A model generated the notes under the pieces. That model saw only the letters and a list, made by a program, of their open reading frames with translations, did no database searches and was not told the DNA's origin. From Candidatus Nomurabacteria bacterium (lineage in GTDB: Bacteria > Patescibacteriota > Minisyncoccia > Phycocordibacterales > UBA5272), in assembly GCA_028286645.1 (NCBI GenBank), contig JAQBRF010000002.1:186518-250517 (forward strand): 64,000 nt of DNA, in the 5' to 3' direction. Shown piece by piece: positions 3,965 to 56,790 of the stretch; position 1 is the first letter of the stretch; each line of letters begins with the position of its first letter. Position numbers and translations under genes: made by a program.

Positions 3965-5500
3965 ATGCACTTAAGAACTCTTATTTTTATAATCGGAGTT
4001 TTAGCAGGGGTCATAATAGGAGAGTCTTCATCATTCGGAAGTGAAATAGCAGTACTTGCTATTTTAATTTCTATAATTCAAGGGGCGATCTATTTCTTTG
4101 AAAGGAAGAATGTAAAGACTGAAAAACTTTATCTGTGTTTGTTTACAATTCTTATTTCGATCGGATTATTTACTGGAATAATTAGAGAACAATTATCAGT
4201 ACAAAAAGATAACTTCACGTGCGCCGCTTGCACCTTCACCGCAAAAGTTATATCAACCCCAGAAGTAAAAGATACATATCAAGTTTTTAATATTCATCCT
4301 GAAGTGAATAATAAAAATATTTATGATGTGGAAGTAAAGACGCCTTTGTATCCCAAATATAAAGCAGGGGACAGGCTTCAGATTTCTGGGAAGGTGAGCG
4401 AACCGAAAGCCATTCTTCCACACAATGATTCAAACTCATTTGATTATGTTTCTTATTTAAAAACAAAAAATGTTGGAAGTGAAATGTTTTATCCGAAAGT
4501 TGAAATATTGCCTAGTGACGGTATAACATTTCAAGAAAGATTAATTTCTTTAAAAGAAAGTCTTATCAGTAAATTAGAAACTTATGTAAGTGCTCCGGCA
4601 TCGTCGCTTGCTTCTGGAATGTTGTTCGGAAAGTCATCAATGCCAATTGAGCTTACAAATACATTTCGTATAGCCGGACTTTCCCACATTATTGTTTTGT
4701 CAGGTTTTAATATCGCAGTTGTGATATCTTTTATACTTTTTATATTCGCATTTATTCCGCTTACTCTTCGTATTATATTTGCCGGGAGTGCAGTTGTTAT
4801 TTTCATACTAGCTGTTGGCGGAGAGGCAAGCGTAGTGCGCGCAACGATCATGGCATTCATCGGACTTTTAGCAACTTTAATCGGTAAAGAGTATGTGGCT
4901 AAACAAGCCCTCATCATCTCATTACTTTTAATAGTAATGTATGAGCCATACTCATTGCTCCATGACGTGTCGCTTCATCTTTCGTTTTTAGCAACTGCTG
5001 GGATAATTTATTTGTCTCCGGTTTTTCAAATTATTTTTAATAAAATAAAAAGCGAATCATTTAGGTCTCTTATCACCACAACTTTGTCAGCGTACATTGC
5101 GACTCTTCCATATATATTATTTACATTCGGGAAGATCTCCATGTATGCACTTTTATCAAATGTTATTGCATTGCCGCTTGTCCCCGCCACTATGCTGCTT
5201 TCATTTCTCGTAATAGTTTCGTCATATATTTGGGGAGGGTTTGGAGTATTGTTTGGATTTGTTACGACGATTTTAGCAAACGTTATTATCTGGGTGGCGC
5301 AAGTAACTGAAAAGATGCCATACTCGTATATTCCGCTTCAAATAAATTTTTATAGCATGATCATGCTATATATTCTGATTGTATTGACGCTTACTTACGT
5401 TTATAAAAAGAAAAATAATAAAGAAAATGAAACGTTACAAACAGAAAACGTACTCATAAGTGGGGTAATTGCTTACTCGACAGTAGAAAATAGAGAGTAG
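3965..5500 (+). CDS. comEC: ComEC/Rec2 competence protein, membrane channel part (no MBL domain in this ORF)
   Basis: Polytopic membrane protein with ComEC signature FRIAGLSHIIVLSGFNIAVV; N-terminal OB-like region. Confidence 0.6.
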   Translation: MHLRTLIFIIGVLAGVIIGESSSFGSEIAVLAILISIIQGAIYFFERKNVKTEKLYLCLFTILISIGLFTGIIREQLSVQKDNFTCAACTFTAKVISTPEVKDTYQVFNIHPEVNNKNIYDVEVKTPLYPKYKAGDRLQISGKVSEPKAILPHNDSNSFDYVSYLKTKNVGSEMFYPKVEILPSDGITFQERLISLKESLISKLETYVSAPASSLASGMLFGKSSMPIELTNTFRIAGLSHIIVLSGFNIAVVISFILFIFAFIPLTLRIIFAGSAVVIFILAVGGEASVVRATIMAFIGLLATLIGKEYVAKQALIISLLLIVMYEPYSLLHDVSLHLSFLATAGIIYLSPVFQIIFNKIKSESFRSLITTTLSAYIATLPYILFTFGKISMYALLSNVIALPLVPATMLLSFLVIVSSYIWGGFGVLFGFVTTILANVIIWVAQVTEKMPYSYIPLQINFYSMIMLYILIVLTLTYVYKKKNNKENETLQTENVLISGVIAYSTVENRE

Positions 5501-16387: not shown

Positions 16388-17503
16388 ATGAAAAAACTTA
16401 TTTTGGCACTTATGCTAACTTCCGGAATTTTGTATTCATACGCAGATACTTGTACCGATATTTCTATAAACCTTTCAAAAAAAGGAAATACAAACAGCCA
16501 AGTCCTTATCCTTCAAAACTTTCTTTTTAATAAAGGCTTATTAAATGCAAAACCGAATGGGTATTTCGGTCCTCAAACATTTACAGCAGTAAAACTATAT
16601 CAGAAGTCAAAAGGCATTACGCCAACAGGAGACGTGGCAGCGCTTACGAGATCATCTATAAAAAATGAAAGCTGCAATGGAACCACACCTGCTGTTTCGT
16701 CTCCCACAACATCGACAATGGCCACTACAACTTCACAAGTTATGGTTACGCCTTTAGTGCCTTCGGTTATTTCCATAAAAGTTTCTCCTTCTGTTATAAA
16801 TACTATTGATTACGCCACATTTATCTCCGGAGGAAAAATGGATACGCCGTTAACGATACGAGGATCAGGATTTAGCTCTTCTACAAATCAAGTTATTTTA
16901 AAATTAACTGGATCAAACAGAACCTTTGATTTAGGAAATTTCCCGTCCGTAAATGGGACGACAACTATTGTATCCTCAAGTTTTATAACAAACACATATC
17001 CCTGTGGGACGAGCTGCACCGAGCTTCTTCCGGTTGGCAATTATAGTGTGATTGTGAAAAATGAGGGAGGGGAAAGCAATGCGGGAGGAATAATAGTAAG
17101 AAATATAATCGCAACTGGCACATCAGGAAGTATTTCTACAGCAATAAAGCAGCAAAGCACTCAGGCAAAGCTTGCCACCTTTACAATAGGGACCAATACA
17201 TCGATTTCTCTTGAAGAGATGAACATCTCTCTAACTTCTTCACTTTCAAGCGGAGCAGGGATTTCAAATTTAAAATTAAAAGATGAATTATCCGGTGAAG
17301 TAATAGGAGGGTCATCATCATTTGATTTAGGCAAGAGAATGATAATTGAAAATCAATCAAAGATTTATTCTTTATATGGCGATATTGATGTACCCGTATC
17401 TGTCGGCGTAACTATTAACGCAGTCTTAAAAGTAAAAGAATTTATCGGAAATAATTTTATATATATAACAATTCCAACTGTTTTTGATACTATTTCTGGG
17501 TAA
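16388..17503 (+). CDS. secreted surface protein with same N-terminal PG-binding module, Thr-rich linker, Ig-like domains
   Basis: Signal peptide; VLILQNFLFNKGLLNAKPNGYFGPQTFTAVKLYQKSKGITPTGDV. Confidence 0.5.
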   Translation: MKKLILALMLTSGILYSYADTCTDISINLSKKGNTNSQVLILQNFLFNKGLLNAKPNGYFGPQTFTAVKLYQKSKGITPTGDVAALTRSSIKNESCNGTTPAVSSPTTSTMATTTSQVMVTPLVPSVISIKVSPSVINTIDYATFISGGKMDTPLTIRGSGFSSSTNQVILKLTGSNRTFDLGNFPSVNGTTTIVSSSFITNTYPCGTSCTELLPVGNYSVIVKNEGGESNAGGIIVRNIIATGTSGSISTAIKQQSTQAKLATFTIGTNTSISLEEMNISLTSSLSSGAGISNLKLKDELSGEVIGGSSSFDLGKRMIIENQSKIYSLYGDIDVPVSVGVTINAVLKVKEFIGNNFIYITIPTVFDTISG

Positions 17504-31062: not shown

Positions 31063-31132
31063 GGAAATTACAAAAACTATAAAATCATATAGTTTTTGTT
31101 TTTTGTATCCAGTCGTAGTACTATTGAAGTAC

Positions 31133-32503
31133 ATGGAAAACCAACCGCCAAATGAAGTCTCTAAGATAAATACTCCGGACTCCTCAGTTAATGAAAAGGC
31201 TATTGAAGAATATTTGATTAGCCTAAATGCAGACGAACGAAGACTCGCTCTAGAATTGGTTATAGAAGCAAAGGGAGATATATCTAAAATTGGCGCAATT
31301 TACGATAAAGCCAGCGTATATATAAAATCAATATTAGGAGCAGTAGTTTTTGCTACGGCTATGCAAGGAGATGTCCCAAAGACAGAACATTTACAGGCTC
31401 ATGGTTTAGAATTAGCGGATGACGTTGAAGCATTAAGGAAAGAAATAAAATCTATAACAGATTTTGATTTTATAGAAATGGCAAATAGTAATAGTAGAGT
31501 TGCCACGCTAATGAAGGCTGAGACTCCGAGCCAATTAACAATTGTCCACCTTGGACAATCTCATAAGACAGATATAGAAACAAATGATGCAAATAGTTAT
31601 GAAATAATTCAAAGCCAAAAACAGATTTCCAGAATATTGTCATCTTTTGCAGTTCCCGCTACGCGTGTTTTTGTTGAAGGGTACTATGAAGAGACAATGA
31701 AAGCCGTAGAAGATGTAGTGAGTATTTCAAACAAATTTGAGGCTCTGGATTCATTTACTGATATTGCATACGAATATTATTATTTTATTCAATCCTATCA
31801 AACCACTGAATCTATCGCAGTTATAAACAAAATAGTTTCTGATAAATTAAATAAAATTGGCTTTAAAGAAATTTTACCGCTTCAATTAAGCAACGGTAAG
31901 GACAAGTTATCGTTAGTTGCTCCAGCAAATCTTCCTACCAAGTCTTCTTTTTCTACTGATTCTGAAAGTCATGCATTGCTAAATGGATCAAGCGTATTGC
32001 TTAATACAAAAGGTGTTATACAGATGATGCCCGCGGAAACAGAGCGCGGGAGCATTAACCCATTCATGATGACCGATGTCCTTAAAGAAAAGGGAAAGAA
32101 GTTAGGAGAGATACTTTTAACTATTAATCCGAAAGTTTATAAATATACAGCAGATAATATTCTCCCTGAGATTTCGGCATTTTCTTCATATGAGATTACA
32201 CAACTAACCCAGGGAGATAATTGTCAGAAGAATGTAAAATGCCAAATGCTAGCAAAAGAAATATTGGAAAATGATATCCCTAAAATCTCTACAGCTATTT
32301 ATGAGGATAGAGAGAATGTGGCAATAGAGCAAATAGCAAAATATGCTAAAAGTGGTCAAAAAGTTATACCTCTTGTATTTGGACAAGGGCATGACTTTAC
32401 TGGAGCGGTTGTAAAGTGGAATAAATCTCATCCTGATAAGCAATTTAACTTGATAACCATCAAACCGCCTTCTTTTGCTTATGGCCCCAGCACATCCCAG
32501 TAA
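31133..32503 (+). CDS. hypothetical protein, possibly TraB/GumN-like (ORF-track TTG start 31103 likely over-extended; ATG at 31133)
   Basis: TIVHLGQSH near N-term and VIPLVFGQGHDFTGAVV near C-term resemble TraB-family GT.HL / G.GHL.G motifs; weak. Confidence 0.3.
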   Translation: MENQPPNEVSKINTPDSSVNEKAIEEYLISLNADERRLALELVIEAKGDISKIGAIYDKASVYIKSILGAVVFATAMQGDVPKTEHLQAHGLELADDVEALRKEIKSITDFDFIEMANSNSRVATLMKAETPSQLTIVHLGQSHKTDIETNDANSYEIIQSQKQISRILSSFAVPATRVFVEGYYEETMKAVEDVVSISNKFEALDSFTDIAYEYYYFIQSYQTTESIAVINKIVSDKLNKIGFKEILPLQLSNGKDKLSLVAPANLPTKSSFSTDSESHALLNGSSVLLNTKGVIQMMPAETERGSINPFMMTDVLKEKGKKLGEILLTINPKVYKYTADNILPEISAFSSYEITQLTQGDNCQKNVKCQMLAKEILENDIPKISTAIYEDRENVAIEQIAKYAKSGQKVIPLVFGQGHDFTGAVVKWNKSHPDKQFNLITIKPPSFAYGPSTSQ

Positions 32504-33185: not shown

Positions 33186-34565
33186 ATGATAAAAGGAATA
33201 AAAAACAGCGCTTTAGCGCTTGCAGTTACAGGATTTTTTATAAGTAATATAGTTTCAGTATCGGCTGCGTATTTTGACAACGCTCCAGCACCTGCTTGCG
33301 GCATCCAAATTACAGGCAGTCTTTCACAAGGCTCTACAAACCCAGAGGTCTATATTTTACAAGGCTTTCTTAAGCAATCGGGATATTTAAATGCTATTCC
33401 TAATGGAACATTTGGAGCTCAAACTAAGCTCGCGGTAAAGTCATTTCAGAGAGATAACGGTATCCAGCCTACTGGATCAGTTGGTCCGGCGACGAGAAAT
33501 GCTATCAATGAAAGAATCTGTGATAGTGACCAGTCTGTCTTAGGAGATGACTATGGATATTCGGGATATTCTGGATACTCCGGATATCAAACAGGAGTTA
33601 CATATGTTGCTCCAAACGATCCGTACGTTAAGGTTATTACTCCTCAAACAAGTAATCCTGCAATTTATTCAAATCCTGGAACAAGCTATGTTTCTTCAAC
33701 ATATCAGTCAACTCCACCCTATACTTCGATTCCTTCATACGCTCCTCCTGTAGTTAATTCAAATTCCTCAGTATTTTCACAAGGCGGAAGTGCAAATATA
33801 ATTTATTCTTCTGCCATTGGTTATACATATGGTCTTACACCTCAGCCAGGATCTCTTACCATAAATAATCCACAGGCTAACACCTCTTACAGAGAAGGGG
33901 ATACAGTATATCTATCTTGGACTACAAATAATTTAACATCAAATAATCAGTTTCAGATCATATTAGAAAGTGTAAATGCCAATCAAAATAAAGTTGTCTC
34001 AGTTACATCTGGAAATAGCGCGTCATTTACCTTGACTAAAGAACTACTTGATTCAATCTGCTCAGGCACATGTGACTACAATTACAATAGCCAAAACGCT
34101 CAATATAAAGTAGTTCTTGCTACTCCGATCACAGATATATCAGGACAGTCATCAATATTTAGAGCAAGTGTTCCTATAAATGTAACAAGACCGTTCTCTT
34201 ATAATGGTACTGCAACTATTTCTCCAAATAAGACGCCGGTAAACAGTGGAGAAGTATTCAGGCTTTACGTAAACACTCCAGCTAATCTGAATAATAGTAA
34301 TTATCTTTACCCAACTCTTACATTTAGATTAAGAGCAATATGCCCATCTAATGTAACTGTAAGTATCGCGGGCGCACAATGTGGAAGCGAGTTTACACTT
34401 CCTTATACTTATTCAAATAATCAGCAGGAAGTTCCAGTTACTATCAACAACGCTGGCTATTATCCTCAAAAAGTAACATTTGAAATCGTTACTTATAACG
34501 GGGGAGTGGAAGTAAGCAAGTCTCAAACAGAAGTATCAGTAAATGGATTATCATTTAGCTACTAG
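33186..34565 (+). CDS. secreted surface protein with Cys-bracketed PG-binding module (third paralog), Tyr/Ser/Gly-rich linker, Ig-like C-terminal domains
   Basis: Signal peptide; VYILQGFLKQSGYLNAIPNGTFGAQTKLAVKSFQRDNGIQPTGSVG. Confidence 0.5.
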   Translation: MIKGIKNSALALAVTGFFISNIVSVSAAYFDNAPAPACGIQITGSLSQGSTNPEVYILQGFLKQSGYLNAIPNGTFGAQTKLAVKSFQRDNGIQPTGSVGPATRNAINERICDSDQSVLGDDYGYSGYSGYSGYQTGVTYVAPNDPYVKVITPQTSNPAIYSNPGTSYVSSTYQSTPPYTSIPSYAPPVVNSNSSVFSQGGSANIIYSSAIGYTYGLTPQPGSLTINNPQANTSYREGDTVYLSWTTNNLTSNNQFQIILESVNANQNKVVSVTSGNSASFTLTKELLDSICSGTCDYNYNSQNAQYKVVLATPITDISGQSSIFRASVPINVTRPFSYNGTATISPNKTPVNSGEVFRLYVNTPANLNNSNYLYPTLTFRLRAICPSNVTVSIAGAQCGSEFTLPYTYSNNQQEVPVTINNAGYYPQKVTFEIVTYNGGVEVSKSQTEVSVNGLSFSY

Positions 34566-38550: not shown

Positions 38551-39198
38551 ATGAAATTTAATCAAGATCCAAGCAAACCTGAGGCTGGAATAGAGGCGGT
38601 TATAGAAAGCGGAGAATTCCCGGAAACTCAAGAAGAGCGAGAGGCTAGATTGGGACAATTGAGGATGGATGAAACTCTACATGAGGCGCATGTTGAAGCA
38701 AGTATAGAAGATCAAAAAGCAAGATTCCAGAAATATAAGCAAGAAGCGGAAGAAAAATTATCTAAGCTCAGTAGTAATGATTCATATAAATATGTTATAG
38801 GAGATAAGTACAGTCCTTTCTATACTTTCTTTTATTCATTGCAGGGAAAGCCTTTAGAATTAGGAGAAGGGGGAAGATTTATAATTGCCAACTTAGAAGA
38901 AATAAAAGCATTAGCTAAAAAAGGATTAGCAATTTATTATCAGGCTCTAAAAGAAAATCCCCCGACACAAAAAGAAGTCATCAATGATAGCATGCCTCAT
39001 TTAGCAAGAGCAATCAGTAATGATCTTTTAGCAGAGAGAACTTTGAAAGGTAATAATGACCCCAAGGAGTACTATCACATTCTCGATGAAGAAGATTACA
39101 GAAAATTGCGTTTTCTCGGAGATCAAGGCGGACATAATAGCGAAGAAAGAGATAGAGAAAAATATCTCACGACACTAGAATTTATAAAAAAGCTATAG
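38551..39198 (+). CDS. hypothetical acidic protein inserted between rplO and secY
   Basis: ORF only. Confidence 0.3.
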   Translation: MKFNQDPSKPEAGIEAVIESGEFPETQEEREARLGQLRMDETLHEAHVEASIEDQKARFQKYKQEAEEKLSKLSSNDSYKYVIGDKYSPFYTFFYSLQGKPLELGEGGRFIIANLEEIKALAKKGLAIYYQALKENPPTQKEVINDSMPHLARAISNDLLAERTLKGNNDPKEYYHILDEEDYRKLRFLGDQGGHNSEERDREKYLTTLEFIKKL

Positions 39199-41373: not shown

Positions 41374-42141
41374 ATGAAATACGATATTAAATTAAAAACC
41401 GAAACAGACATAATTAACTTACGTGAAAGCGGAAGAAGACTTGCTGTCGCTTTAAAAGAAACTGCAAAAGAAGTTAGACCAGGAGTGACTACAGGATATT
41501 TAAATGACTTTTTTCATAAATTGGTAGTAGATCAGGGGGACGAGCCGGCGTTTTTAAACTATCAGCCATTTGGAGCGGATTATCCATATCCAGGGAGCAT
41601 TTGTATATCAGTAAATGAAGAAGTGGTGCATGGCATTGGAGGAGATAGAGTTTTAGAAGAAGGGGATATTGTCGGACTTGATGGCGGTATAAAGCATAAA
41701 GGGATGATATCAGATTCTGCTATTACTGTAGGAGTCGGGGGAATAAGTGATGAAGACAAGGAATTAATGGAGGTGACCAAGAATGCTCTTATGGCGGGGA
41801 TAAATGCAGCGGTGGGTGGAAAGTATGTAAATGATATTTCAAAGGCTATTGAAAAGTCTATTCCTAAGAAGTACGGAGTAGTAAAGATTCTTTCAGGTCA
41901 TGGTGTGGGGTACAAGGTCCATGAAGAGCCGTATGTGCCTAACTTTGATGACGGTGTAAAAGGGCCAAAGCTCGTGCCAGGACTTGTGCTTGCGCTTGAG
42001 CCAATGGTAAACCACGGAACGGACGAAGTATATTTGGACAAGGACGGATATACATTTATAACAAAAGACCATAAAAAGTCAGCGCATTTTGAGCATACTA
42101 TTTTAATAACAGAAGGAAAGGCAGAGATATTAACAGCCTAG
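41374..42141 (+). CDS. map: methionine aminopeptidase type I
   Basis: VHGIGGDRVLEEGDIVGLDGG, GHGVGYKVHEEP. Confidence 0.9.
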   Translation: MKYDIKLKTETDIINLRESGRRLAVALKETAKEVRPGVTTGYLNDFFHKLVVDQGDEPAFLNYQPFGADYPYPGSICISVNEEVVHGIGGDRVLEEGDIVGLDGGIKHKGMISDSAITVGVGGISDEDKELMEVTKNALMAGINAAVGGKYVNDISKAIEKSIPKKYGVVKILSGHGVGYKVHEEPYVPNFDDGVKGPKLVPGLVLALEPMVNHGTDEVYLDKDGYTFITKDHKKSAHFEHTILITEGKAEILTA

Positions 42142-42194
42142 TTGACTTCTTAAAGCAGAGGAATACACTTTATATATGGAAATGAATACACCTT

Positions 42195-42413
42195 TTGAAT
42201 CAGACCCCCCACAATATTAAGTTTCTTTCACCGGAAGATAATATAAAAGATATGGAAGCTAGGTTAGGAATGTATGAATCTATTCCTAGTCCCACAGAAG
42301 AAGATCTCCGGCAAATTAATTACTTAAGAAGCAATATTGAGATTCAAAAACAAGCAATTAAAGACAAAGATAGTAAAAAAGACAAAGATAGTAAAAAGGA
42401 AATTATACATTAA
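42195..42413 (+). CDS. small hypothetical protein with KDKDSKK tandem tail
   Basis: ORF only. Confidence 0.2.
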   Translation: MNQTPHNIKFLSPEDNIKDMEARLGMYESIPSPTEEDLRQINYLRSNIEIQKQAIKDKDSKKDKDSKKEIIH

Positions 42414-42469
42414 TAACTCTCTTCTAGTATTCACTGGTAACTGTCAACTGAAAACTGTAAACTGTTCCT

Positions 42470-45184
42470 ATGAATTCCCAATTCTCCACGCCTGAAGAAG
42501 AAATTGCTTATTTGCGAGCACAAGTAAAAGAAAAACAAGAAAAAGCCAAAGGATTTGAAGATCGCTTCACTCCTATTGATCATGCAAATGAAGTTGTTAG
42601 AGAATATAGAGAAACTCCTACAGAAAAAGTAATAACTCCAGAGTTTCAAGCAAGTTCGGCCACACATAAAAAGTTATTAGAATGGCTTGCTCCGAAATCA
42701 ACCGATGAGCAGATATTCATGCTTTCTCAAGTTATAGCAGAAAAGGGCATAAAAAATGCTTTTAATCTTCTTGAGAAAATGAATAGTCCCGAGCTTGACG
42801 ATGACTTTGAAAGATATTTGGCACAATACATCATTTCAGGACATGAAATAAAAAACGATATTTCAAAGGATGAGTGGAAAGCGCTTCACATGAGACTTTT
42901 TGAAATAGTATTGCCGGACGCGGATGGATCCAATGGAAAGTCGATGAAAGAAATGATGGCTCTTATGGAACAATGGTATGCCTCTATGCAAGCACTCGCC
43001 CGAGATGCCACAAACAAGGAAAAGAATTATTACTCTCTTGAAGTCGGGGTTTCTAATGGTTCGACGACTGCATCATTTTATTGTGCTGTTCACATTGATT
43101 ATGCTGATCTTTTCGAGAAGGTGGTTCTGGGAGTGTTCCCGACAGCACAAATTAGGGAAAATAAAGAAGATTATAATATTTTCCATGAACATGCCATAAC
43201 TACAGCATCTTACGCTACTCATAGCACGCACCCCGCCTTACCTATTAAGACATATGCGGATATGGAGGCTGATCCGATGTCCCTTATTCTTTCTTCCTTT
43301 ACTAAGATTGCAAAAGACGGAGAAGGCTTAGCTCTTCAATTGTTAATTCGACCAGCAGGGGATGTGTTCGCAAAGAGATTTGGAGAGATGTTGGAAGACT
43401 TACGCAAGGGAGAAACAATGAAGCGGGTTATTGATAAACAAAGTGCGCTTAAAGAAACTTTGTTTTTATTAAATTCGATGTTTTCGTCCCCTAAACCGAA
43501 AGAGGAGGAAAAAGAAAAGAAGCAAACCTTCATTGATGAAAATGCAATTAAGTATGTTCAGGATAAATTATCCAAAACAATCATCGAGTCTAATTTAAGG
43601 ATCATCTCTTCTGCGAGCTCTCTGCCTCGTGCGCAAGCTATCAGACATGATTTAGAAAGCTCGTTTATTCAATTCACTCAAGTGGGGGGCAATAGCATTG
43701 TCTTTAAGGAAGTAACAGGGAGCCGCCAGAAAGCCATGCTTCATAGATATTCATATAGATTATGGAATGAAGACGAAAGTTATCCTCTTAACTTAACAGA
43801 ACTTGCTTCAATCTTCCATTTTCCTACGCAATCTAAAGATGTATCAAATGTGCGTGAGCAAACGGCCGCCATGGCCCAGCCTCCGCTTGATATGCCGCAG
43901 GACGGCGTAATTCTGGGGGTAAATAATTTCCGCGGAGAAGAAAAGACGATTCACTTTAGTCGAGAAGATCGTATGAGGCATTTATATGTTATAGGACAGA
44001 CAGGAACCGGTAAGACGGGAATTCTCAAGAATTTAATTATTCAAGACATTAAAAATGGCGATGGATGCTGTTTCATTGATCCGCACGGGTCTGACCTCTT
44101 AGATATTTTAGCGAATGTCCCGCCTGAGCGAGCAAAAGATGTGATTTACTTTGACCCGGCGTATACAGAACGCCCCATGGGATTAAATATGCTGGAGTAT
44201 GATAGAAATTTCCCTGAACAAAAGACTTTTGTGGTAAACGAGCTCTTGGGTATTTTTGATAAGCTTTTTGATATGAAAGCAACGGGAGGTCCGGGATTTG
44301 AGCAATACTTCAGAAATGCGACCATGCTAGTTATGGAGCACCCAGAGTCTGGCAATACACTTTTGGAAATTTCTAAAGTATTTTCTGATAAGGATTTCAG
44401 GGATTATAAATTATCAAAATGTAAAAATCCTATGGTGTTACAATTCTGGCAAAATGCTGAAAAGACCACAGGAGATCAAGGGCTTCAGAACTGGACGCAG
44501 TACGTAAATAGTAAATTCGATGTCTTCATGACTAATGACATTATGCGTCCTATTATTGCTCAGGAAAAAAGCTCATTTAATTTTAGAGATATTATGGACA
44601 CCAAAAAGATATTTCTCGTTAATTTATCAAAAGGACGACTGGGAGATCTAAACTCTTCTCTTCTAGGTCTTATTATTGTAGGGAAGTTTTCACAAGCGGC
44701 GCTCTCCAGAGTAAATATAGTCGATGTTAAAGAAAGAAAAGATTTTTACTTGTATATTGATGAATTCCAAAACGTATCAACGCCTTCAATTGCCACGATT
44801 TTATCTGAAGCTCGTAAATATAGGCTATCACTTAACATTGCTCATCAGTACATAGGCCAGCTTACGGAAGAAATAAAAGGCGCGGTTTTCGGCAACGTCG
44901 GGTCTATGGCCGTATTTCGCGTAGGGCCTGACGATGCAAAATATTTAGAAACTCAGTTTGCTCCAATATTTACCGCAACTGATATAATGAGGATAGAAAA
45001 TCGTCATGGATATTTAAAGACTCTTGTAAATGGAGAGCCTAAAAAGCCTTTTGATATAAAAACACTTAATACCGAGCACGGAGACGCCAGCCGTATCGAG
45101 CCATTGAAAGAATTAAGCTACTTAACATATGGAAGACCGAGAGAAGAAGTGGAGGCAGAAGTGCTCAAGAAGTTCCAATTATAA
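42470..45184 (+). CDS. P-loop ATPase of the VirD4/TraG/TrwB (T4SS coupling protein, AAD_bind)-like class with ~480-aa novel soluble N-terminal domain
   Basis: Walker A YVIGQTGTGKTG followed by ...CCFIDPHGS; Walker B LYIDEFQNV; ARKYRLSLNIAHQ; no N-terminal TM helices. Confidence 0.5.
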   Translation: MNSQFSTPEEEIAYLRAQVKEKQEKAKGFEDRFTPIDHANEVVREYRETPTEKVITPEFQASSATHKKLLEWLAPKSTDEQIFMLSQVIAEKGIKNAFNLLEKMNSPELDDDFERYLAQYIISGHEIKNDISKDEWKALHMRLFEIVLPDADGSNGKSMKEMMALMEQWYASMQALARDATNKEKNYYSLEVGVSNGSTTASFYCAVHIDYADLFEKVVLGVFPTAQIRENKEDYNIFHEHAITTASYATHSTHPALPIKTYADMEADPMSLILSSFTKIAKDGEGLALQLLIRPAGDVFAKRFGEMLEDLRKGETMKRVIDKQSALKETLFLLNSMFSSPKPKEEEKEKKQTFIDENAIKYVQDKLSKTIIESNLRIISSASSLPRAQAIRHDLESSFIQFTQVGGNSIVFKEVTGSRQKAMLHRYSYRLWNEDESYPLNLTELASIFHFPTQSKDVSNVREQTAAMAQPPLDMPQDGVILGVNNFRGEEKTIHFSREDRMRHLYVIGQTGTGKTGILKNLIIQDIKNGDGCCFIDPHGSDLLDILANVPPERAKDVIYFDPAYTERPMGLNMLEYDRNFPEQKTFVVNELLGIFDKLFDMKATGGPGFEQYFRNATMLVMEHPESGNTLLEISKVFSDKDFRDYKLSKCKNPMVLQFWQNAEKTTGDQGLQNWTQYVNSKFDVFMTNDIMRPIIAQEKSSFNFRDIMDTKKIFLVNLSKGRLGDLNSSLLGLIIVGKFSQAALSRVNIVDVKERKDFYLYIDEFQNVSTPSIATILSEARKYRLSLNIAHQYIGQLTEEIKGAVFGNVGSMAVFRVGPDDAKYLETQFAPIFTATDIMRIENRHGYLKTLVNGEPKKPFDIKTLNTEHGDASRIEPLKELSYLTYGRPREEVEAEVLKKFQL

Positions 45185-45406
45185 GATTATTTTATAATGG
45201 ACTTTATAAGTGTACTAGGTATACTTATCCTATGTTGGGTTTCGTAATCCTTATCCTTTCTCTAATCGTATATATACCTCTTGCAGCAGTTTTACTTTAT
45301 GTATGGTGGAAGTATGGGAGAGGTGAGAAAGGGGTGACGGTCGCTAGAAATTTCTTTCTGGCCGGATCTTTCGTCCTGCTTTTTTCTATGCTGTTTATAT
45401 AGATGT

Positions 45407-45955
45407 ATGAAATTTGAAAAAGAACATATTTTAGAAGAAGGGGAAGAGATAATTTCTACCATTAGAAAGCATTGGATAGTATATGTGCATGATTTTTTCT
45501 TACATGCTTTTGGTTGCCTCTTGTTAATTGTTGCCGTCTATTATTTTTCAAGTGGAGATTTATTTAAAAATTATTCAAATGAAACTGCGTACGGCACGAT
45601 GGTCCTGATATTATTTGTCCTTATTTTCTGGACAAGCTTTTTTTATTCATGGACGAAAGATTATTTTGACGTCTGGTATGTTACGAATAAGCACATAGTA
45701 GCTGTAAATCAAAAGGAGATTTTAAGCAGGGATGAAGCATTTATGGAACTTCTCCGCATTCAAGACGTCTTCTTCGAGAAAAATGGCTTTCTTTCAAATA
45801 TCTTTGATTATGGACAGTTAAAAGTCCAGAGTGCAGGCACAGAACAGCAGTTTGTTATGGAATACGTAAAAGAAGTAGAGACTGTAGCTCATAAAATAAT
45901 GCTTCTTCGTGATGAAGCGCATAATAAATTCCCTACGCCTACATCAGGTTTATAA
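45407..45955 (+). CDS. two-TM membrane protein, bacterial PH-like (DUF304-like) domain, hypothetical
   Basis: Two hydrophobic helices flanking short loop, then soluble domain. Confidence 0.3.
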   Translation: MKFEKEHILEEGEEIISTIRKHWIVYVHDFFLHAFGCLLLIVAVYYFSSGDLFKNYSNETAYGTMVLILFVLIFWTSFFYSWTKDYFDVWYVTNKHIVAVNQKEILSRDEAFMELLRIQDVFFEKNGFLSNIFDYGQLKVQSAGTEQQFVMEYVKEVETVAHKIMLLRDEAHNKFPTPTSGL

Positions 45956-46941: not shown

Positions 46942-47802
46942 TTATTCACTCCTTCCAAATTGCTTTGGAAAAGTCTCTGCATTATCTTTTGCAAATTGCT
47001 CTTTATCTTTATACGCTGGAATAATTTTATATTCTAATATAGCCATCCCCGCATTTACTAACAATTTATGCGGAATAAAGCTAGTGGCAAAGTTAAGAGC
47101 GCTAAGCATTGCTCTTTCAGGGTGGCTTTTAAAATTTGCGAGCTCTGACTTAACATCAAATCCCTTATTAATATAGCTTGCAAAGATACGCGATCTTCCT
47201 GGAACCATTCGTCCGAGATTAGATCCTGCTTCTATTTTATCCATTAGCGACGTACTCTCGGATCTTATTTTACTTATATCTCTTGTCACAGGTTTAAGGG
47301 TCTCCTTTCCAAGGAATGAAACTAGCGCCATACTGGCACTCACTATTTCGGTTGGAGTCTGCTCACCCTTACTTACTCTTGGGACCGTGTCTCCCAATTC
47401 GGCATTTTGTTTTTCAATAAGCTCTATATCTTCGTCGGAAGTATTTTTATAATCCTCTATATTTTCCACGCTTGATGAATCTGGGGATGGAGGTTGTTCT
47501 GTATCTTTTGTTTGGGCTAATGCGGACACTGAAGAAATTCCAATTAAAAATATTGCAGCATTTCCGAGAAGGGAAAGTTTCTCTTTCATTTTTCCTAGTA
47601 ACCCTCTCTTTTCTATCAGTTTTTCTTTTAGTTTTATTTCTTCTTCCGTTTTTGCATGAATTTCATTTATGCGTGATGAAGTAGCCTCAATCCTCTCTAA
47701 GAGTATTTCTTTCTTATTTTCGACAGATTCAAGCAGTGAGGAAGGGGATTCTATCGCGCTATCAACCGGCCTTTCGTTTGGATTTAATGAATGAGATTCC
47801 AT
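46942..47802 (-). CDS. hypothetical coiled-coil protein with central hydrophobic segment
   Basis: ORF; heptad-like KLKEKLIEKRGLLGKMKEKL region. Confidence 0.3.
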   Translation of the reverse strand: MESHSLNPNERPVDSAIESPSSLLESVENKKEILLERIEATSSRINEIHAKTEEEIKLKEKLIEKRGLLGKMKEKLSLLGNAAIFLIGISSVSALAQTKDTEQPPSPDSSSVENIEDYKNTSDEDIELIEKQNAELGDTVPRVSKGEQTPTEIVSASMALVSFLGKETLKPVTRDISKIRSESTSLMDKIEAGSNLGRMVPGRSRIFASYINKGFDVKSELANFKSHPERAMLSALNFATSFIPHKLLVNAGMAILEYKIIPAYKDKEQFAKDNAETFPKQFGRSE

Positions 47803-49545: not shown

Positions 49546-51828
49546 TTAATTCCTAAAGATGTCGTCCGCTGTGGCGTCTACTGAAGACTCTTCGGTAGTA
49601 TCGGAAGGGGCAGGGTTTCCAGAAAGAACTTCTCTGTATCTCTCACCAGACCTAGCAGGGCCTATTATATTATGTCTTTCCAGATCATTAATTATACGAG
49701 CGGCTTTATTATATCCCCATCGAAAGGCAGTTTGGAGTGAAGAAGTGGAAGCTTTCCCAGTAGAAGTGACATAATCCTTTGCACTCATATAATCTTCATC
49801 GTCTTCTGGCTCGCTTCCGCCATCTCCATCATTTGAGATGTTCCCGCTTGCAATACCGACTCTAACTTTTGAAATATCAATGCTATCTGGTATGAAATCC
49901 AAATATGTCTGCTTTATATTTGCTACTACGGCTTTTATTTCTTCTGTAGAAATAAAAGGAGCTTGTATTCTAACGAGGCGGGGGTTGTCCGATGCCATAT
50001 AAAGCATATCTCCATTTCCAAGCAAATCTTCTGCTCCCGAAGCATCTAAAATAGTTCTAGAGTCAATCTGAGAAGTTGTCTTAAGCGCGATACGAGCTGG
50101 AATGTTTGCCTTAATAGTTCCGGTGATAACTTTTACATCAGGCCGCTGGGTTGAAAGTATGAGGTGTACTCCGGCGGCACGACCTTTTTGAGAGAGCGAT
50201 GTGATAAGCGGGCTTATTTCTTTTGGATACGAAAGCATGAAGTCGTTGTATTCGTCGAAGATAATAACTATATATGGCATCTTAGGCGGAACCCCTTCCA
50301 GCTCTTCACCGATTTTAGATTTTTTACGAGCTTTCTCGAGAGCGGGGGCTAATACTTTTTTATTGTAATCTGTTACGTTTACCTGGCCATATTCTGAAAG
50401 AATTTCATATCGGCGCTCAAGTTCTTGTACAGCCCAGTTGAGTGCCTTAATAGCGCTTTTCGGTTCTTTAATAATAGGGGTATAAAGATGGGGAAGATTG
50501 CTGTACATTGTAAACTCTACTCTTTTTGGATCAAGGATAATCAGCTTTAAATCATAAGGCGAGTTCTTGTAAAGAAGAGACATTAGGAGATTTTGGAGGG
50601 TGACAGATTTACCTGTACGTGTAGCACCAGCCACAAGCAAATGCGGCATTTTTTCTAAGTCTCCAAAGATGGGCTTACCAACGATTGATTTTCCTATTGC
50701 TAAGTTAAGGGGTCCGCTTTCGATGAACTCAGTAAGCTCAAGCATTGATCGGAGACCAAGAGTGGCTTTTCTTTCATTAGGGACTTCGATACCAACCAGA
50801 GATTTCCCTGGAATAGGTGCTTCAATACGTAAAAACTCAGATCCAAGTTCCATGGCAAGATTATCATGAAGGGTAACTATCTTAGATAGGTTCACTCCTT
50901 GCGCTGGTTTAAGGGTAAATTGGGTAACTGTTGGTCCAACTGTTACTTCTCCCATTTCTACATGAATACGGAAATGTTCTAACGTTCTCTGAATAGTCTG
51001 CATTTTCGCTCTAGAATCTCCTGCGCCACTTTTTCCAGAATCTACATTAAGAAGTTCAAGCGGTGGAGGAACAAACTCAGGAGTAAGAATTACCGGTCTT
51101 GCTTTTATTTCTCTTTTCGAGGCCTCTTCCTCCTCTATCGGAGAAAGCTCTCCAAATATTTCGCGTCTTAAGTCAGGTCCATCTTTTCCGTGTACCACTA
51201 CTTCTTCAATTTCTTGGGGGACTTCTTCTTCTATTTTATCTTCTAAAAGAATGGCTTCATCATCGATTGGCTTATTTCTAAATAATCCAAACATTTTTTG
51301 TAGCTGAATAAATGGATATGAAAGGATAATAAATAGAGGAGACAAAGATGGTTTTCTTTCTAGAATTACAATTCCTCCAATGGCAGCTATTCCGCCTAGT
51401 AAGGCAACGCTTGGATAGTATGCGAAATATTTTACAAGGGGCCCTGTTATAAGGACGCCTAATAATCCGGCAAATGTTGGGCTAAAGAAAAGCGTTCCTA
51501 AGCCTGATATTCCTAATAATAAAAAAAGCCAGCCAAGAGCCATCATAAATCTTATATTTGGCAGCTCCTCTTTCCATAGATAATAAGCAATGTAAAAACA
51601 TATAAGAGGGGTTACATAAGAAAAGAATCCGATTATGGATTCAATTCCCGAAAAGAGAATCTCTCCTCCATCTCCTCCTGCGTGTACCATGGAAAATATT
51701 AAAAGAGCTCCTATCATTACGAAGATAACAGAAAGTACGCCTAATATTGTTTCTGCAAGTACTGGGTCTTTTACTCTCTTACGTCTTCCTCGAGGGAGCG
51801 CATCTCCACGTGTGTCTTCCTTTGCCAT
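49546..51828 (-). CDS. ftsK: DNA translocase FtsK/SpoIIIE
   Basis: N-terminal TM helices; HLLVAGATRTGKSV Walker A; C-terminal gamma wHTH. Confidence 0.9.
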   Translation of the reverse strand: MAKEDTRGDALPRGRRKRVKDPVLAETILGVLSVIFVMIGALLIFSMVHAGGDGGEILFSGIESIIGFFSYVTPLICFYIAYYLWKEELPNIRFMMALGWLFLLLGISGLGTLFFSPTFAGLLGVLITGPLVKYFAYYPSVALLGGIAAIGGIVILERKPSLSPLFIILSYPFIQLQKMFGLFRNKPIDDEAILLEDKIEEEVPQEIEEVVVHGKDGPDLRREIFGELSPIEEEEASKREIKARPVILTPEFVPPPLELLNVDSGKSGAGDSRAKMQTIQRTLEHFRIHVEMGEVTVGPTVTQFTLKPAQGVNLSKIVTLHDNLAMELGSEFLRIEAPIPGKSLVGIEVPNERKATLGLRSMLELTEFIESGPLNLAIGKSIVGKPIFGDLEKMPHLLVAGATRTGKSVTLQNLLMSLLYKNSPYDLKLIILDPKRVEFTMYSNLPHLYTPIIKEPKSAIKALNWAVQELERRYEILSEYGQVNVTDYNKKVLAPALEKARKKSKIGEELEGVPPKMPYIVIIFDEYNDFMLSYPKEISPLITSLSQKGRAAGVHLILSTQRPDVKVITGTIKANIPARIALKTTSQIDSRTILDASGAEDLLGNGDMLYMASDNPRLVRIQAPFISTEEIKAVVANIKQTYLDFIPDSIDISKVRVGIASGNISNDGDGGSEPEDDEDYMSAKDYVTSTGKASTSSLQTAFRWGYNKAARIINDLERHNIIGPARSGERYREVLSGNPAPSDTTEESSVDATADDIFRN

Positions 51829-53586: not shown

Positions 53587-56500
53587 ATGTCTAAAACTCA
53601 AATGAAGATTGCTACATCAATAGCAATCGTCGGAGGTATGATCGCTAGTGCACTTAGTGCATCAGCGGCTCTCAACCTTCCAACAGTGAGCTGCTCATAT
53701 ACGTTTAATACGAATATGAGACTTGGCTCAAGAGGTACAGATGTTATGAATCTTCAAAAGACTCTTAACATGTGGCCACAGACACGTGTAGCAGTATCAG
53801 GTGCAGGTTCTTCAGGAATGGAGACTTCAACATTTGGTCCAGCAACTCGTGCCGCAGTGAATAAATTCCAAGCTCTACATCTTGTAGAACTAGGAATCAC
53901 TGCACCAACAGGAAATGTGTACGCAGGTACACGTGCCCTACTTAACATGGCATGCGCCGGTCAGTCGACTCTTCCAGCAGGTTGTACATCAACTTCTGGA
54001 TTCAGCCCAACTACAGGACAGTCATGTGGAAACGGTCAGCCTACAACAACAACTCCTGGTCAGACAAGTGGCCCAGTTAGCGCAGTGCTATCAGGTTCAC
54101 AGCCTACAGGAACTATTGTTTCAGGACAGGCCGGTGCTCGTTTAGCTGACATTACTTTCACTGGAAACGGTACAGTTACAAACGTACAGTTACAGAGAAT
54201 CGGAGTGTCATCTGACGCAACACTAAATAATGTCTACCTATATGATGGAAATGTTCGTATCACAGATGCAGCATCCGTTATAACAGGTGGTTACATTAAC
54301 TTCAACGCTCCTTCAGGACTCTTTACTGTAAATGGATCACGTACAATAACTGTACGCGCTGACATTGCAGCAGGGACTACAGCGGGTCAGACAGTTGGAG
54401 TAAAACTTAACAGCGTAACTGCAGGAGGAAATAAGACTACATTTACAAATGTAGTTGGAAATACTCTTTCAACAGCGTCTGTTACTACAGCTTCAGTTAA
54501 CTTTGCAACAATTGCAACAACAACACGAACTGTCGATGCTGGAACTACAAACTTCAACGTTTGGTCAGGTTCAGCTAACGTCGGAACACGTGATGTATGG
54601 TTCAGAGCCGCAACTTTCAAGTTCGTCGGTTCAGCTCCAGTTGATTCACTAGCAAACCTTAGCCTCTATGTAGACGGTACTAAGGTAGCTGGTCCTGCAA
54701 CAGTTAATGCTGCAAACAACAACAAAGTAACATTTGATTTCGGTAATGCACCATATCTTCTAAAGACTGGTACACACACAATCGATGTCCGCGGAGATGT
54801 TGTAAAGGGTTCAAACAGAACAATTACTTTCTCAGTTGAGAACGTATCTGATCTAATGTTTGAAGACTCACAGCTTTCTGGCGTTAACATCGCCGCCGTT
54901 GTAAACAACCAACCGTTTACACAAAGCGGTGCAACGTATGGAACAATTACTGTTAACAGAGGAACTGTAACAGCAAATGTAGACCCAGCATTTACAGCTA
55001 ATCGCGTAACTGGTGGTGCTACAAATGTTCCAATCTCACAGTTTATTCTTAAGGCATACGGTGAAGATGTAAAAGTTAACACTCTTACAGTAACTCCTAC
55101 ACTTTCAGGTGCTCAGATCTCCGGATCTACAACTCCTGTAGTAACCGGACTTCAGAATGTAAGCCTATATGTAAACGGTGGTCAAGTTGGAACTTCACAA
55201 AATATGACTGGAAATTCACAAGCGTTAACCTTTAACTTAGGTTCATCTCTAGTTGTTCCAGCTGGTCAGACAGTAACTCTTACTGTAAAAGCTGACACAG
55301 TGAACGGAAACAATTCTGCTTATACAGCAGGTACTGTTTCTGCTTCAATCAGCGGTTCAAACAATGCACAAGGACAAAGTTCATATGAACTTACATCTGT
55401 GCCAGGTGCTGCTGTAACAGGTAATACTCTTACAATAGGTGCCGGAGCTGGTACATTTGCTCGAACATCAGGATTTGCTGCTACTACAGTTTCTCCTAAT
55501 TCAACAAATGTAAGAGTTGGATCATTCACACTACAGGCAAATTCATCTGAAGCAGTGCGAGTTAACTCAATTGGAGTTAACACAAACGTTTCAGGTTATG
55601 CTCAAACAAATATCAGTAACTTAAGAGTGCAGACCGGCTCAACAGTTCTTGGAACTCCAGTAGGAAATCCAGCAACTGGAACCACAACATTCTCATTTAA
55701 TGACGTTACAATTCCTGCAAATGGAACAATGACATTCGATGTGTATGCTGATATCGGTGGTGCTACAACTGGCTCAACTACAGTTGCTATGGACATTACT
55801 TATCGTGGTGCTGTAAGTAACACAACAACAACCTCATCAGCTGCAGGTTCAACTGTTACTACATCAGCCGCAACTCTATCTGCCCCAACATTGAACTCAA
55901 GCTCACCAGTTTCACAGTTCGTAGTTGGTGGATCAACATTTGGAATTGCAACATTCAAGCTAGGTACAGTTACATCTGGAACTCAGGCGAATGTTCGTGA
56001 ATTACGCTTCACAACAACAGGAACAGATGCTATTGAAAGCATCACTGTTGGAGGTGTAACTTCATCGGTAATTTCTAACGGAACAACAACTGTTTCAGGA
56101 ATCAACATCCCTATCTCTTCAAGCGGTACAGATGTTCCTGTAATAGTTAAGTTCGCACAATTCCAGAACAATGCAGTGGGTCAATCAGGCTCACTACAGT
56201 CAGGTGCTACTACAACTGTAACCCTAGGTTACATTGAAGCAACATCTGGATCAGGTTCAGTAGTTTCTACTACAACAACAGCAACTTCTAACGCTATGAG
56301 ACTAGTAGGATCAAAGCCTACAGTTTCAGTAAGTGCAGGAGCAACAAATTACCTTCAGTTAAATGCTGAAAGTAAGGTTGGTGAAGTAACGGTAACTGCT
56401 GACGCTAACGGAAGAATCTCTGTCGATCAGATAAGATTCAATGTTAGTGCTAACGGTGTATCTGCAGCAACATTCGGTTCATTCAGAATTGCTGACGGAA

Positions 56501-56790
56501 ACACAACTATCAGCAACAGCTCTACAGTTGTTACTTCAACAAGTACTAACTCAGCTGTTGTCACATCTACGTTCTCACCAAGTTACGACATAACTGCAGG
56601 TACATCAAAGACCTTCACACTATTCGGAACAATCGGAGGAACACAGACAGGTAGCGCAATCCCACAGGCTGTATCATCAGTCGATGCATCTAACTTCCTT
56701 TGGAAAGATGTTATTGGAGGAAACACTCAGTACTCTGGTGTTCTAATCTTTAACTTCCCAACAAATAGTTACGCTACTCGTTCACAATAA
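53587..56790 (+). CDS. 1067-aa secreted surface protein: signal peptide, Cys-bracketed PG-binding-like module (fourth paralog), long Thr/Ser/Gly/Val-rich beta-repeat region
   Basis: N-terminal module bracketed by Cys, conserved FGP.T..AV..FQ core; low-complexity Ig-like repeats. Confidence 0.5.
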   Translation: MSKTQMKIATSIAIVGGMIASALSASAALNLPTVSCSYTFNTNMRLGSRGTDVMNLQKTLNMWPQTRVAVSGAGSSGMETSTFGPATRAAVNKFQALHLVELGITAPTGNVYAGTRALLNMACAGQSTLPAGCTSTSGFSPTTGQSCGNGQPTTTTPGQTSGPVSAVLSGSQPTGTIVSGQAGARLADITFTGNGTVTNVQLQRIGVSSDATLNNVYLYDGNVRITDAASVITGGYINFNAPSGLFTVNGSRTITVRADIAAGTTAGQTVGVKLNSVTAGGNKTTFTNVVGNTLSTASVTTASVNFATIATTTRTVDAGTTNFNVWSGSANVGTRDVWFRAATFKFVGSAPVDSLANLSLYVDGTKVAGPATVNAANNNKVTFDFGNAPYLLKTGTHTIDVRGDVVKGSNRTITFSVENVSDLMFEDSQLSGVNIAAVVNNQPFTQSGATYGTITVNRGTVTANVDPAFTANRVTGGATNVPISQFILKAYGEDVKVNTLTVTPTLSGAQISGSTTPVVTGLQNVSLYVNGGQVGTSQNMTGNSQALTFNLGSSLVVPAGQTVTLTVKADTVNGNNSAYTAGTVSASISGSNNAQGQSSYELTSVPGAAVTGNTLTIGAGAGTFARTSGFAATTVSPNSTNVRVGSFTLQANSSEAVRVNSIGVNTNVSGYAQTNISNLRVQTGSTVLGTPVGNPATGTTTFSFNDVTIPANGTMTFDVYADIGGATTGSTTVAMDITYRGAVSNTTTTSSAAGSTVTTSAATLSAPTLNSSSPVSQFVVGGSTFGIATFKLGTVTSGTQANVRELRFTTTGTDAIESITVGGVTSSVISNGTTTVSGINIPISSSGTDVPVIVKFAQFQNNAVGQSGSLQSGATTTVTLGYIEATSGSGSVVSTTTTATSNAMRLVGSKPTVSVSAGATNYLQLNAESKVGEVTVTADANGRISVDQIRFNVSANGVSAATFGSFRIADGNTTISNSSTVVTSTSTNSAVVTSTFSPSYDITAGTSKTFTLFGTIGGTQTGSAIPQAVSSVDASNFLWKDVIGGNTQYSGVLIFNFPTNSYATRSQ

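Follow-up and report, generated by a model that had tools for sequence, protein, structure and literature searches.

Introduction

Canonical type IV coupling proteins (T4CPs), among them TrwB of R388, VirD4, TraD, TraG, DotL and Cag-beta, have a RecA-like domain with Walker A and Walker B motifs and an inserted all-alpha domain. VirB4 proteins such as TrwK of R388 have an N-terminal alpha/beta domain of about 350-400 residues followed by a C-terminal ATPase domain, and in the R388 structures this N-domain contacts VirB3 and VirB8. Here we analyse a gene for a 904-residue protein (positions 42470-45184, forward strand, ATG start, stop codon included) in a 64-kb stretch of a Candidatus Nomurabacteria genome (contig JAQBRF010000002.1), hereafter the window, whose product joins a DUF8128 domain to a T4CP-like ATPase domain. 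With canonical T4CPs it shares the nucleotide-binding domain and, as predicted, the all-alpha insertion; with VirB4 it shares, in a predicted model, the order of an alpha/beta domain and an ATPase. Unlike canonical T4CPs, it has no N-terminal transmembrane anchor, carries about 470 extra N-terminal residues, is unlinked to a relaxase or a type IV secretion system (T4SS), and resembles them very little in sequence. Unlike VirB4, its ATPase domain lies outside the VirB4 sequence family, its N-domain has no sequence-level similarity to that of VirB4, and its gene has no virB3 or virB8 neighbours.

Patescibacteria, which live attached to other cells, account for a large share of bacterial diversity. 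According to Quinonero-Coronel et al. (2025, PMC12102498), 3,035 of their genomes yielded 5,713 VirD4-type T4CP homologues, found in 2,918 genomes (96%), and VirB4 occurs in 2,417 genomes (80%), each with a T4SS of the monoderm conjugation type encoded on the chromosome. In the T4SS cluster of Ca. Southlakia epibionticum, coupling and relaxase proteins were not recognisable (Wang et al. 2023, PMC10633639). The DUF8128-ATPases share with the homologues of PMC12102498 the matches to T4CP hidden Markov models (HMMs), the near-universal presence in the phylum and the location away from virB4, and the two are almost certainly the same gene set. An earlier sequence-only reading of the window had called this ATPase an orphan, which is true of the locus and had already been reported for Patescibacteria generally in that study. 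Already known are, accordingly, the DUF8128 family in Pfam and, since 2025, orphan T4CP homologues in this phylum. We did not find described in the literature the architecture, the VirB4-like N-domain, the small partner that is fused or split, the fixed position after secY-adk-map, or the plasmid relatives; the searched passages of PMC12102498 mention neither the DUF8128 architecture nor the lack of transmembrane helices, the partner, the secY-adk-map position or plasmid relatives, and DUF8128 itself was not found mentioned in the literature searched.

Results

A coupling-protein-type ATPase domain in a protein without transmembrane helices

The gene has more than 400 database homologues, the best 120 of which are 72-83% identical over their full length, which places the open reading frame (ORF) far beyond chance. 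Matches in Pfam, NCBIfam and the PDB, by sequence and by fold, support the assignment of its C-terminal domain (residues 471-904, positions 43880-45181) to the T4CP type (TrwB/VirD4/TraG) rather than to FtsK or HerA, as the sequence-only reading had proposed. The motifs on which that reading was built are real: Walker A GQTGTGKTG (residues 509-517, positions 43994-44020), FIDPHGS (residues 535-541), Walker B LYIDEFQNV (residues 761-769, positions 44750-44776) and the ARKYRLSLNIAHQ motif that follows it (residues 781-793, positions 44810-44848, the two together covering 44750-44848) line up with Walker A, Walker B and the subsequent conserved motifs of TrwB. G509, G512, G514, K515, D764, E765 and Q793 show no variation across 89 homologues (34-83% identity), the set that also underlies the conserved residues named below.

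In Pfam, the window protein passes the gathering thresholds of TrwB_AAD_bind (23.4 bits against 20.5) and TraG-D_C (24.8 against 22) narrowly, and has no match to the VirB4-family ATPase models (AAA_10, CagE_TrbE_VirB). NCBIfam gives a partial match to SXT_TraD (E 8e-13) and partial TraD/VirD4-like matches far under the equivalog cut-offs. Among 26 scanned relatives of about 800 residues, TrwB_AAD_bind matches all 26, TraG-D_C 25, T4SS-DNA_transf 18 and AAA_10 three, and distant family members cover TrwB_AAD_bind and T4SS-DNA_transf over nearly the whole profile (for example, protein P0219 over positions 10-312 of 387). A profile of the 89 homologues, compared with all PDB sequences, ranks TrwB first (1.2e-8), before DotL (2.9e-5) and HerA (5e-3). 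The AlphaFold model of the full-length protein has a mean predicted local distance difference test score (pLDDT) of 84.3, and in Foldseek its ATPase domain matches TrwB best, with a template modelling score (TM-score) TMt of about 0.6 and a root-mean-square deviation of about 5 A over about 420 columns at 15-16% identity. The secondary structure of the model predicts an all-alpha insertion (residues ~584-710, positions 44219-44599) that coincides in place with the all-alpha domain of T4CPs; TrwB_AAD_bind spans this region in the relatives, and W660, S681, K682, F686, R693 and Q698 are conserved in it.

These comparisons bear on the possibility that the protein is a HerA- or FtsK-type helicase or translocase for repair or segregation and no relative of T4CPs. 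DUF87, the HerA central domain in Pfam, is found in all 26 scanned relatives at E-values close to those of TrwB_AAD_bind, HerA (4d2i) appears in Foldseek at 1.5e-10, and the HerA models of PADLOC match weakly. In the window protein itself, however, DUF87 (17.0 bits against 23.2) and FtsK_SpoIIIE (12.7 against 24) stay below the thresholds that the T4CP families pass, and TrwB stands above HerA both by sequence profile and by TM-score. Moreover, no HAS-barrel or FtsK alpha or gamma domain was found in the protein, no NurA gene is a neighbour, a bona fide FtsK is encoded separately at 49546-51828, and the closest plasmid homologues lie in conjugation loci. We therefore regard a HerA/FtsK origin as very unlikely. 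The outcomes that the sequence-only reading had named as fatal to itself were a HerA/FtsK placement and an N-domain of a housekeeping family; what we find instead is TrwB ahead of HerA, and DUF8128.

As that reading had also stated, the protein lacks transmembrane helices: none is predicted, the highest 19-residue Kyte-Doolittle window is 1.29 and no segment exceeds 1.6.

The N-terminal region contains DUF8128, with a predicted fold resembling that of the VirB4 N-domain

The sequence-only reading described the region before the ATPase as novel and free of recognisable motifs. This does not hold: residues ~131-470 (positions 42860-43879) are DUF8128 (PF26449), preceded by a fused small partner discussed below. 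PF26449 is precomputed on full-length homologues 72-83% identical to the window protein and on the relatives of about 800 residues. Membership of the window protein follows from this close homology; the Pfam set with which we scanned it does not include the PF26449 model, hence the empty scan. E167, E191, A226, P258, Y262, N375, F399, R430, E444 and H450 are invariant in this domain.

When residues 1-470 were searched against 1.8 billion cluster representatives, 872 clusters were retrieved at E<=1e-3. By length these divide into a class of about 900 residues that matches from residue ~4 and one of about 800 residues that matches from query residue ~137, and both keep the T4CP-like C-domain.

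Residues 131-470 modelled alone give a predicted alpha/beta fold (pLDDT 86.3, predicted TM-score 0.85). For this isolated domain, the top 14 PDB matches in Foldseek are all R388 TrwK/VirB4 chains (E 9e-7 to 3.5e-4, TMq at most 0.50, about 400 columns), followed by unrelated ferredoxin-like folds at TM-scores of 0.2-0.3. The full-length model finds full-length TrwK chains first, over about 900 columns (E 7.6e-15), ahead of TrwB.

Relatives on plasmids occupy the position of coupling proteins

A tblastn search of the C-domain against 72,556 plasmids returned 514 records, mostly from Bacillus, Streptomyces, Staphylococcus, Clostridium, haloarchaea and Sulfolobus. With an HMM of the C-domain, scores range from 71 to 319 bits for T4CP-like ATPases of monoderm and archaeal plasmids and fall below 0 bits for Bacillus plasmid VirB4 proteins. 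The N-domain HMM in turn matches a 913-residue protein of Bacillus subtilis (NZ_OX419581, E 9e-29), an 885-residue protein of the same species (NZ_CP154917, E 7e-26) and an 800-residue protein of Clostridium botulinum (pRSJ10_1, E 7e-16), with marginal matches in proteins of B. thuringiensis, Streptomyces and S. aureus pWBG707. BLASTP aligns the window protein to the 885-residue Bacillus protein at E 7e-36, collinearly over residues 253-861 and across both domains.

The Bacillus and Clostridium proteins share with the window protein a DUF8128-like N-domain, a T4CP-like ATPase (scoring 106-158 bits in the C-domain HMM) and the absence of a transmembrane helix, which most of the plasmid relatives lack. 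They differ in being plasmid-borne, in their identity of about 24% and in having no fused N-terminal partner; annotated as 'DUF87 domain-containing' or 'ATP-binding', they are known here from sequence alone. On Bacillus, Streptomyces and Staphylococcus plasmids, the DUF8128-ATPase relatives, marginal ones included, lie directly upstream of a 'replication-relaxation family' gene, and annotated conjugal-transfer genes follow on the Bacillus and Staphylococcus plasmids. Two Bacillus plasmids encode TcpD/TcpE-family proteins, and two B. subtilis plasmids encode a separate VirB4-like ATPase of 847-854 residues. Unlike the window gene, the Bacillus genes thus stand in the position of a coupling protein, adjoining a relaxase-like gene and a Tcp-like T4SS that has a VirB4 of its own. 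The DUF8128 plus ATPase architecture therefore represents one kind of T4CP in monoderm conjugation systems and is no invention of the Patescibacterial lineage. That these Bacillus plasmids belong to the pLS20 family was ruled out, since the VirD4 of pLS20 is a canonical T4CP with two transmembrane helices (PMC8557374).

Two plasmid loci are worth recording separately. On C. botulinum pRSJ10_1, a TrbC/VirB2-family protein and the 800-residue DUF8128-ATPase form a two-gene module with a 4 bp overlap (L173, 2047-4847; wider region, L176), isolated from any other annotated T4SS gene within 45 kb. Among plasmids, the ATPase domain finds its best match in Bradyrhizobium sp. 131 (p131_1; L167, 7104-9230), with 34% identity and 319 bits by the C-domain HMM; this protein has a different, unmatched N-terminus of about 300 residues, and its setting among CHAT-domain and TPR proteins looks like that of a conflict system.

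Residues 1-130 appear to be a fused copy of a small upstream protein

The N-terminal extension of the ~900-residue class (residues 1-130, positions 42470-42859; conserved core at residues 66-121, positions 42665-42832) is helical in the model and has neither a Pfam family nor a PDB relative. We fetched 80 metagenomic loci of the ~800-residue class, containing 971 ORFs. Most of them have a small gene on the same strand immediately upstream of the ATPase gene, with gaps of -3 to ~150 bp, and BLAST clustering places 53 of these upstream proteins, which are acidic and about 115-190 residues long, in two families. When an HMM of residues 1-140 of the ~900-residue class was run against the 971 ORFs, 27 of its 35 matches were the gene at position -1. 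An hhalign comparison of the extension alignment with that of the upstream small proteins gives a probability of 89% (E 2.3e-6), and the joint alignment shows two shared motifs, an N-terminal TPEEEI...L..K and a C-terminal ...EKG(I/V)..A..VA.KM.DPY.LD..HD.L, which in the window protein reads STDEQIFMLSQVIAEKGIKNAFNLLEKMNSPELDDDFERYL. Pairwise BLASTP of the extension against single upstream proteins is marginal, and profiles were required. As judged from these profiles, residues 1-130 are probably a fused copy of the small protein that is encoded just upstream in the ~800-residue relatives, and such a Rosetta-stone fusion points to a joint function of the small protein and the ATPase.

A slowly evolving core gene next to secY, adk and map

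Homologues named in three large searches carry Patescibacteria or Parcubacteria names only, including Paceibacterota, Nomura-, Yonath-, Campbell-, Portnoy- and Colwellbacteria and Minisyncoccia. In the window, the order upstream is rplO, a 215-residue ORF, secY, adk and map, followed by the ATPase gene; map (methionine aminopeptidase, 41374-42141, forward strand) is the last gene of this block, identified by Pfam and kept in related loci. We compared 82 loci related to the window gene, 12 with at least 72% identity (two of which, L001 and L002, hold the same protein) and 70 with about 50% identity. Of all 82, 70 have at least 1.5 kb of upstream sequence, and in 60 of these 70 informative Paceibacteria loci map lies directly upstream, at a median gap of 156 bp, and adk, secY and rplO usually precede it, even where the ATPase is only about 50% identical. 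The median identity of the ATPase protein is 72.9% in the close and 50.0% in the distant tier, as compared with 73.9% and 58.6% for SecY, 82.7% and 53.5% for Map, and 55.3% and 31.6% for Adk. The ATPase gene is a vertically inherited, slowly evolving core gene, with a rate about that of SecY, and not a mobile one.

The loci of the ~800-residue class are likewise placed among housekeeping genes (dnaX, cysS, corA and a GtrA-like gene), without T4SS genes. Of the loci L087-L166, 31 contain dnaX (DNA polymerase III tau/gamma), mostly at a distance of one or two genes downstream from the ~800-residue gene; in L016 (7412-8449), it directly follows the gene for an orthologue that is 53% identical to the window protein. 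Recurrent upstream neighbours of the ~800-residue class are a membrane protein of GT39-like type and a small DUF5663-like protein. Two loci hold tandem DUF8128-ATPase paralogues (L148, 242-2737 and 3276-6143; L162, 7944-10433 and 10676-13561) of about 830 and 955-961 residues, which are 33-37% identical to each other, with counterparts 52-59% identical between the loci. They fit the roughly two T4CP homologues per genome reported in PMC12102498, and raise the possibility of hetero-oligomers.

The synteny bears directly on whether the gene could be part of a mobile element, of an anti-phage defence system with a MADS mad8-like ATPase, or of a remnant of an integrated conjugative element. PADLOC reports a mad8 match (E 4.7e-11), the Bradyrhizobium plasmid match sits among CHAT and TPR proteins, and other relatives are on plasmids. 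The likeness to mad8 is nevertheless confined to the ATPase domain (residues 501-803), and the window gene differs in its neighbours, which are map, efp, recA and ftsK; Pfam scans of the window found no integrase, methyltransferase or other mad genes nearby. The chromosomal position fixed in 60 of 70 loci and the conservation of a core gene largely refute this explanation, the G+C content of the gene is about that of its surroundings, and viral contigs hardly contain the family, with 11 weak matches among 2.9 million, nearly all within the ATPase domain. A mobile or defensive element is extremely improbable, and the near-absence from viral contigs rules against a phage origin as well.

Two downstream membrane genes accompany the ATPase gene in close relatives only

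Downstream of the ATPase gene, on the same strand, lie a 56-residue ORF with two transmembrane segments (45232-45402), which the sequence-only reading had not mentioned, and a 182-residue ORF (45407-45955). The latter had been described as a two-transmembrane, PH-like protein; the two hydrophobic segments are there, while its Pfam matches to bPH_3 (E 0.007) and bPH_2 (E 0.028) in the C-terminus are both below threshold, and the PH-like label is no more than plausible.

The same reading suggested an undescribed system formed with the 182-residue protein, and a system of two or three genes in which both membrane proteins supply the missing anchor finds support in the window itself, where the gaps are short (47 bp and 4 bp). 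The gene order is kept in the 12 loci with at least 72% identity, two with the same protein, and by tblastn the pair is detectable only there; it is absent from all 70 loci of about 50% identity, where ndk or other genes take its place. Even among close relatives the pair is in some cases displaced by 1-1.7 kb from the ATPase gene (L006, L011), and its members are less conserved (58% and 52%) than the ATPase (73%). We rejected the 56- and 182-residue genes as partners of the ATPase on account of this conservation in close relatives only, and consider a membrane-gene system quite improbable.

Other features of the window

Further downstream, on the opposite strand, follow efp, a 286-residue ORF, recA, a 118-residue ORF and ftsK, and other genes of the window identified by Pfam include comEC, EF-G, ribosomal proteins, peptidoglycan-binding proteins and similar. 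The spacer between map and the ATPase gene (42142-42469) measures 328 bp against the median of 156 bp in relatives, and holds a 72-residue ORF (42195-42413) in which a direct 20-bp repeat encodes KDKDSKK twice; without a homologue in 82 related loci, this ORF is probably non-coding. A promoter and terminator scan of the locus gave counts at or below shuffle expectation.

The 215-residue ORF between rplO and secY (38551-39198) has no Pfam match and no tblastn match in the 82 related loci, and the 286-residue ORF between efp and recA (46942-47802, reverse strand) has no Pfam match and is absent from all related loci compared. Two large ORFs, at 53587-56790 (1067 residues) and 31103-32503 (466 residues), also have no Pfam match. 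In the region of ribosomal-protein genes, three proteins (14007-16328, 16388-17503 and 33186-34565) carry PG_binding_1 at the N-terminus, one of them together with PKD repeats.

Discussion

The explanation that we tentatively place first, as possible though short of probable, is that the window protein serves as a soluble coupling-type motor for the chromosomal T4SS of Patescibacteria. It is a soluble member of a distinct T4CP branch within the P-loop ATPases of the FtsK/HerA superfamily, laid out as a fused helical partner (residues 1-130), DUF8128 (~131-470) and a TrwB-like nucleotide-binding domain (471-904). By analogy with TrwB and VirB4, it may assemble into a hexameric, ATP-driven motor, and the predicted VirB4-like DUF8128 could dock it onto membrane components in place of a transmembrane anchor. 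It would then recruit a substrate, DNA or protein, and energise its transfer through the chromosomal T4SS encoded elsewhere in the genome, with the fused N-terminal partner acting as an adaptor or regulator. The homology of both domains to plasmid ATPases that lack transmembrane helices and stand at the coupling position supports this interpretation, and so do the T4CP type of the ATPase domain, the VirB4-like predicted fold of DUF8128, the conservation as a core gene, and the presence of both VirD4-type homologues and a chromosomal T4SS in most Patescibacteria genomes (PMC12102498).

Several observations weigh against it. The resemblance of DUF8128 to the N-terminal domain of VirB4 is a matter of predicted fold, with modest TM-scores: no link by sequence was found by a profile of the N-domain against all PDB sequences, by a member-wise Pfam scan at E<=10, or by hhalign against two Bacillus plasmid VirB4 proteins, and the relationship is accordingly confined to predicted structure. 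The C-domain is far removed from canonical proteobacterial T4CPs. With F TraD and F TraC as proteobacterial reference sequences for its HMM, F TraD scores 11 bits, next to 6.8 for the FtsK of the window and 6.2 for F TraC. The operon context of the window gene is that of housekeeping, and Pfam scans of the window ORFs, 20 further ORFs included, found no VirB4, VirB6, VirB8, relaxase or conjugative pilin in the 64 kb, as the sequence-only reading had said of relaxase, VirB4 and pilus genes; nor were T4SS genes seen among the conserved neighbours in 162 fetched related loci. According to PMC12102498, only 148 of the 5,713 T4CP homologues are near virB4, VirB4 is found in fewer genomes than these homologues, relaxases are nearly absent from Patescibacteria, and in Ca. 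S. epibionticum the T4SS genes are essential and the t4cp homologue, which may or may not be of the DUF8128 type, is non-essential.

The same facts can be read in favour of an exapted housekeeping translocase, working independently of any T4SS, for example in ComEC-mediated DNA uptake, in the movement or resolution of chromosomal DNA or in another envelope machine, and expressed with the ribosomal/secY operon. Such a role would fit the fixed place after secY-adk-map and the SecY-like substitution rate, the housekeeping setting of the ~800-residue class as well, and the lack of T4SS neighbours in the window and in related loci. It would also fit three points of PMC12102498: the wider distribution of homologues (96% of genomes) than of VirB4 (80%), the dispensability of the homologue in S. 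epibionticum, and the statement of those authors that exaptation 'cannot be ruled out'. The window furthermore contains comEC (3965-5500, with Competence and DUF4131 domains), which bears on the DNA-uptake alternative; it lies, however, 37 kb upstream of the ATPase gene and unlinked to it. No positive link to an alternative machine and no conserved membrane partner were found, both domains are homologous to plasmid proteins at the coupling position, and the presence of two paralogues in a genome, together with incomplete metagenome-assembled genomes, may account for the surplus over VirB4. The distribution wider than that of VirB4, the non-essentiality in one species and the housekeeping operon lean towards exaptation, naming no alternative machine, and we hold an exapted translocase to be somewhat unlikely.

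A bolder possibility, which we consider rather doubtful, is that the DUF8128-ATPases form a third, intermediate branch between VirB4 and coupling proteins, in which an N-domain of VirB4 type is joined to a motor of T4CP type. This branch would have been domesticated in Patescibacteria as a near-universal core machine independent of T4SSs, often in two paralogues, each with its small helical partner split or fused, and co-expressed with the ribosomal/secY operon, for example as the missing motor that drives DNA uptake or exchange with the host cell.

Whether as the coupling-type motor that we tentatively favour or in a new role, the family matters for the biology of these bacteria. In the one species tested the Patescibacterial T4SS is essential, and it has no recognised coupling protein or relaxase. 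The DUF8128-ATPases are the obvious candidates to supply this motor; alternatively, they are a conjugation ATPase put to a new housekeeping use. The anchorless architecture, the predicted VirB4-like N-domain and the small partner, fused or split, offer handles for experiments, and the Bacillus plasmid relatives provide a genetically tractable setting in which to study coupling proteins of the DUF8128 type. Beyond Patescibacteria, the family bears on how VirB4 and the coupling proteins diverged.

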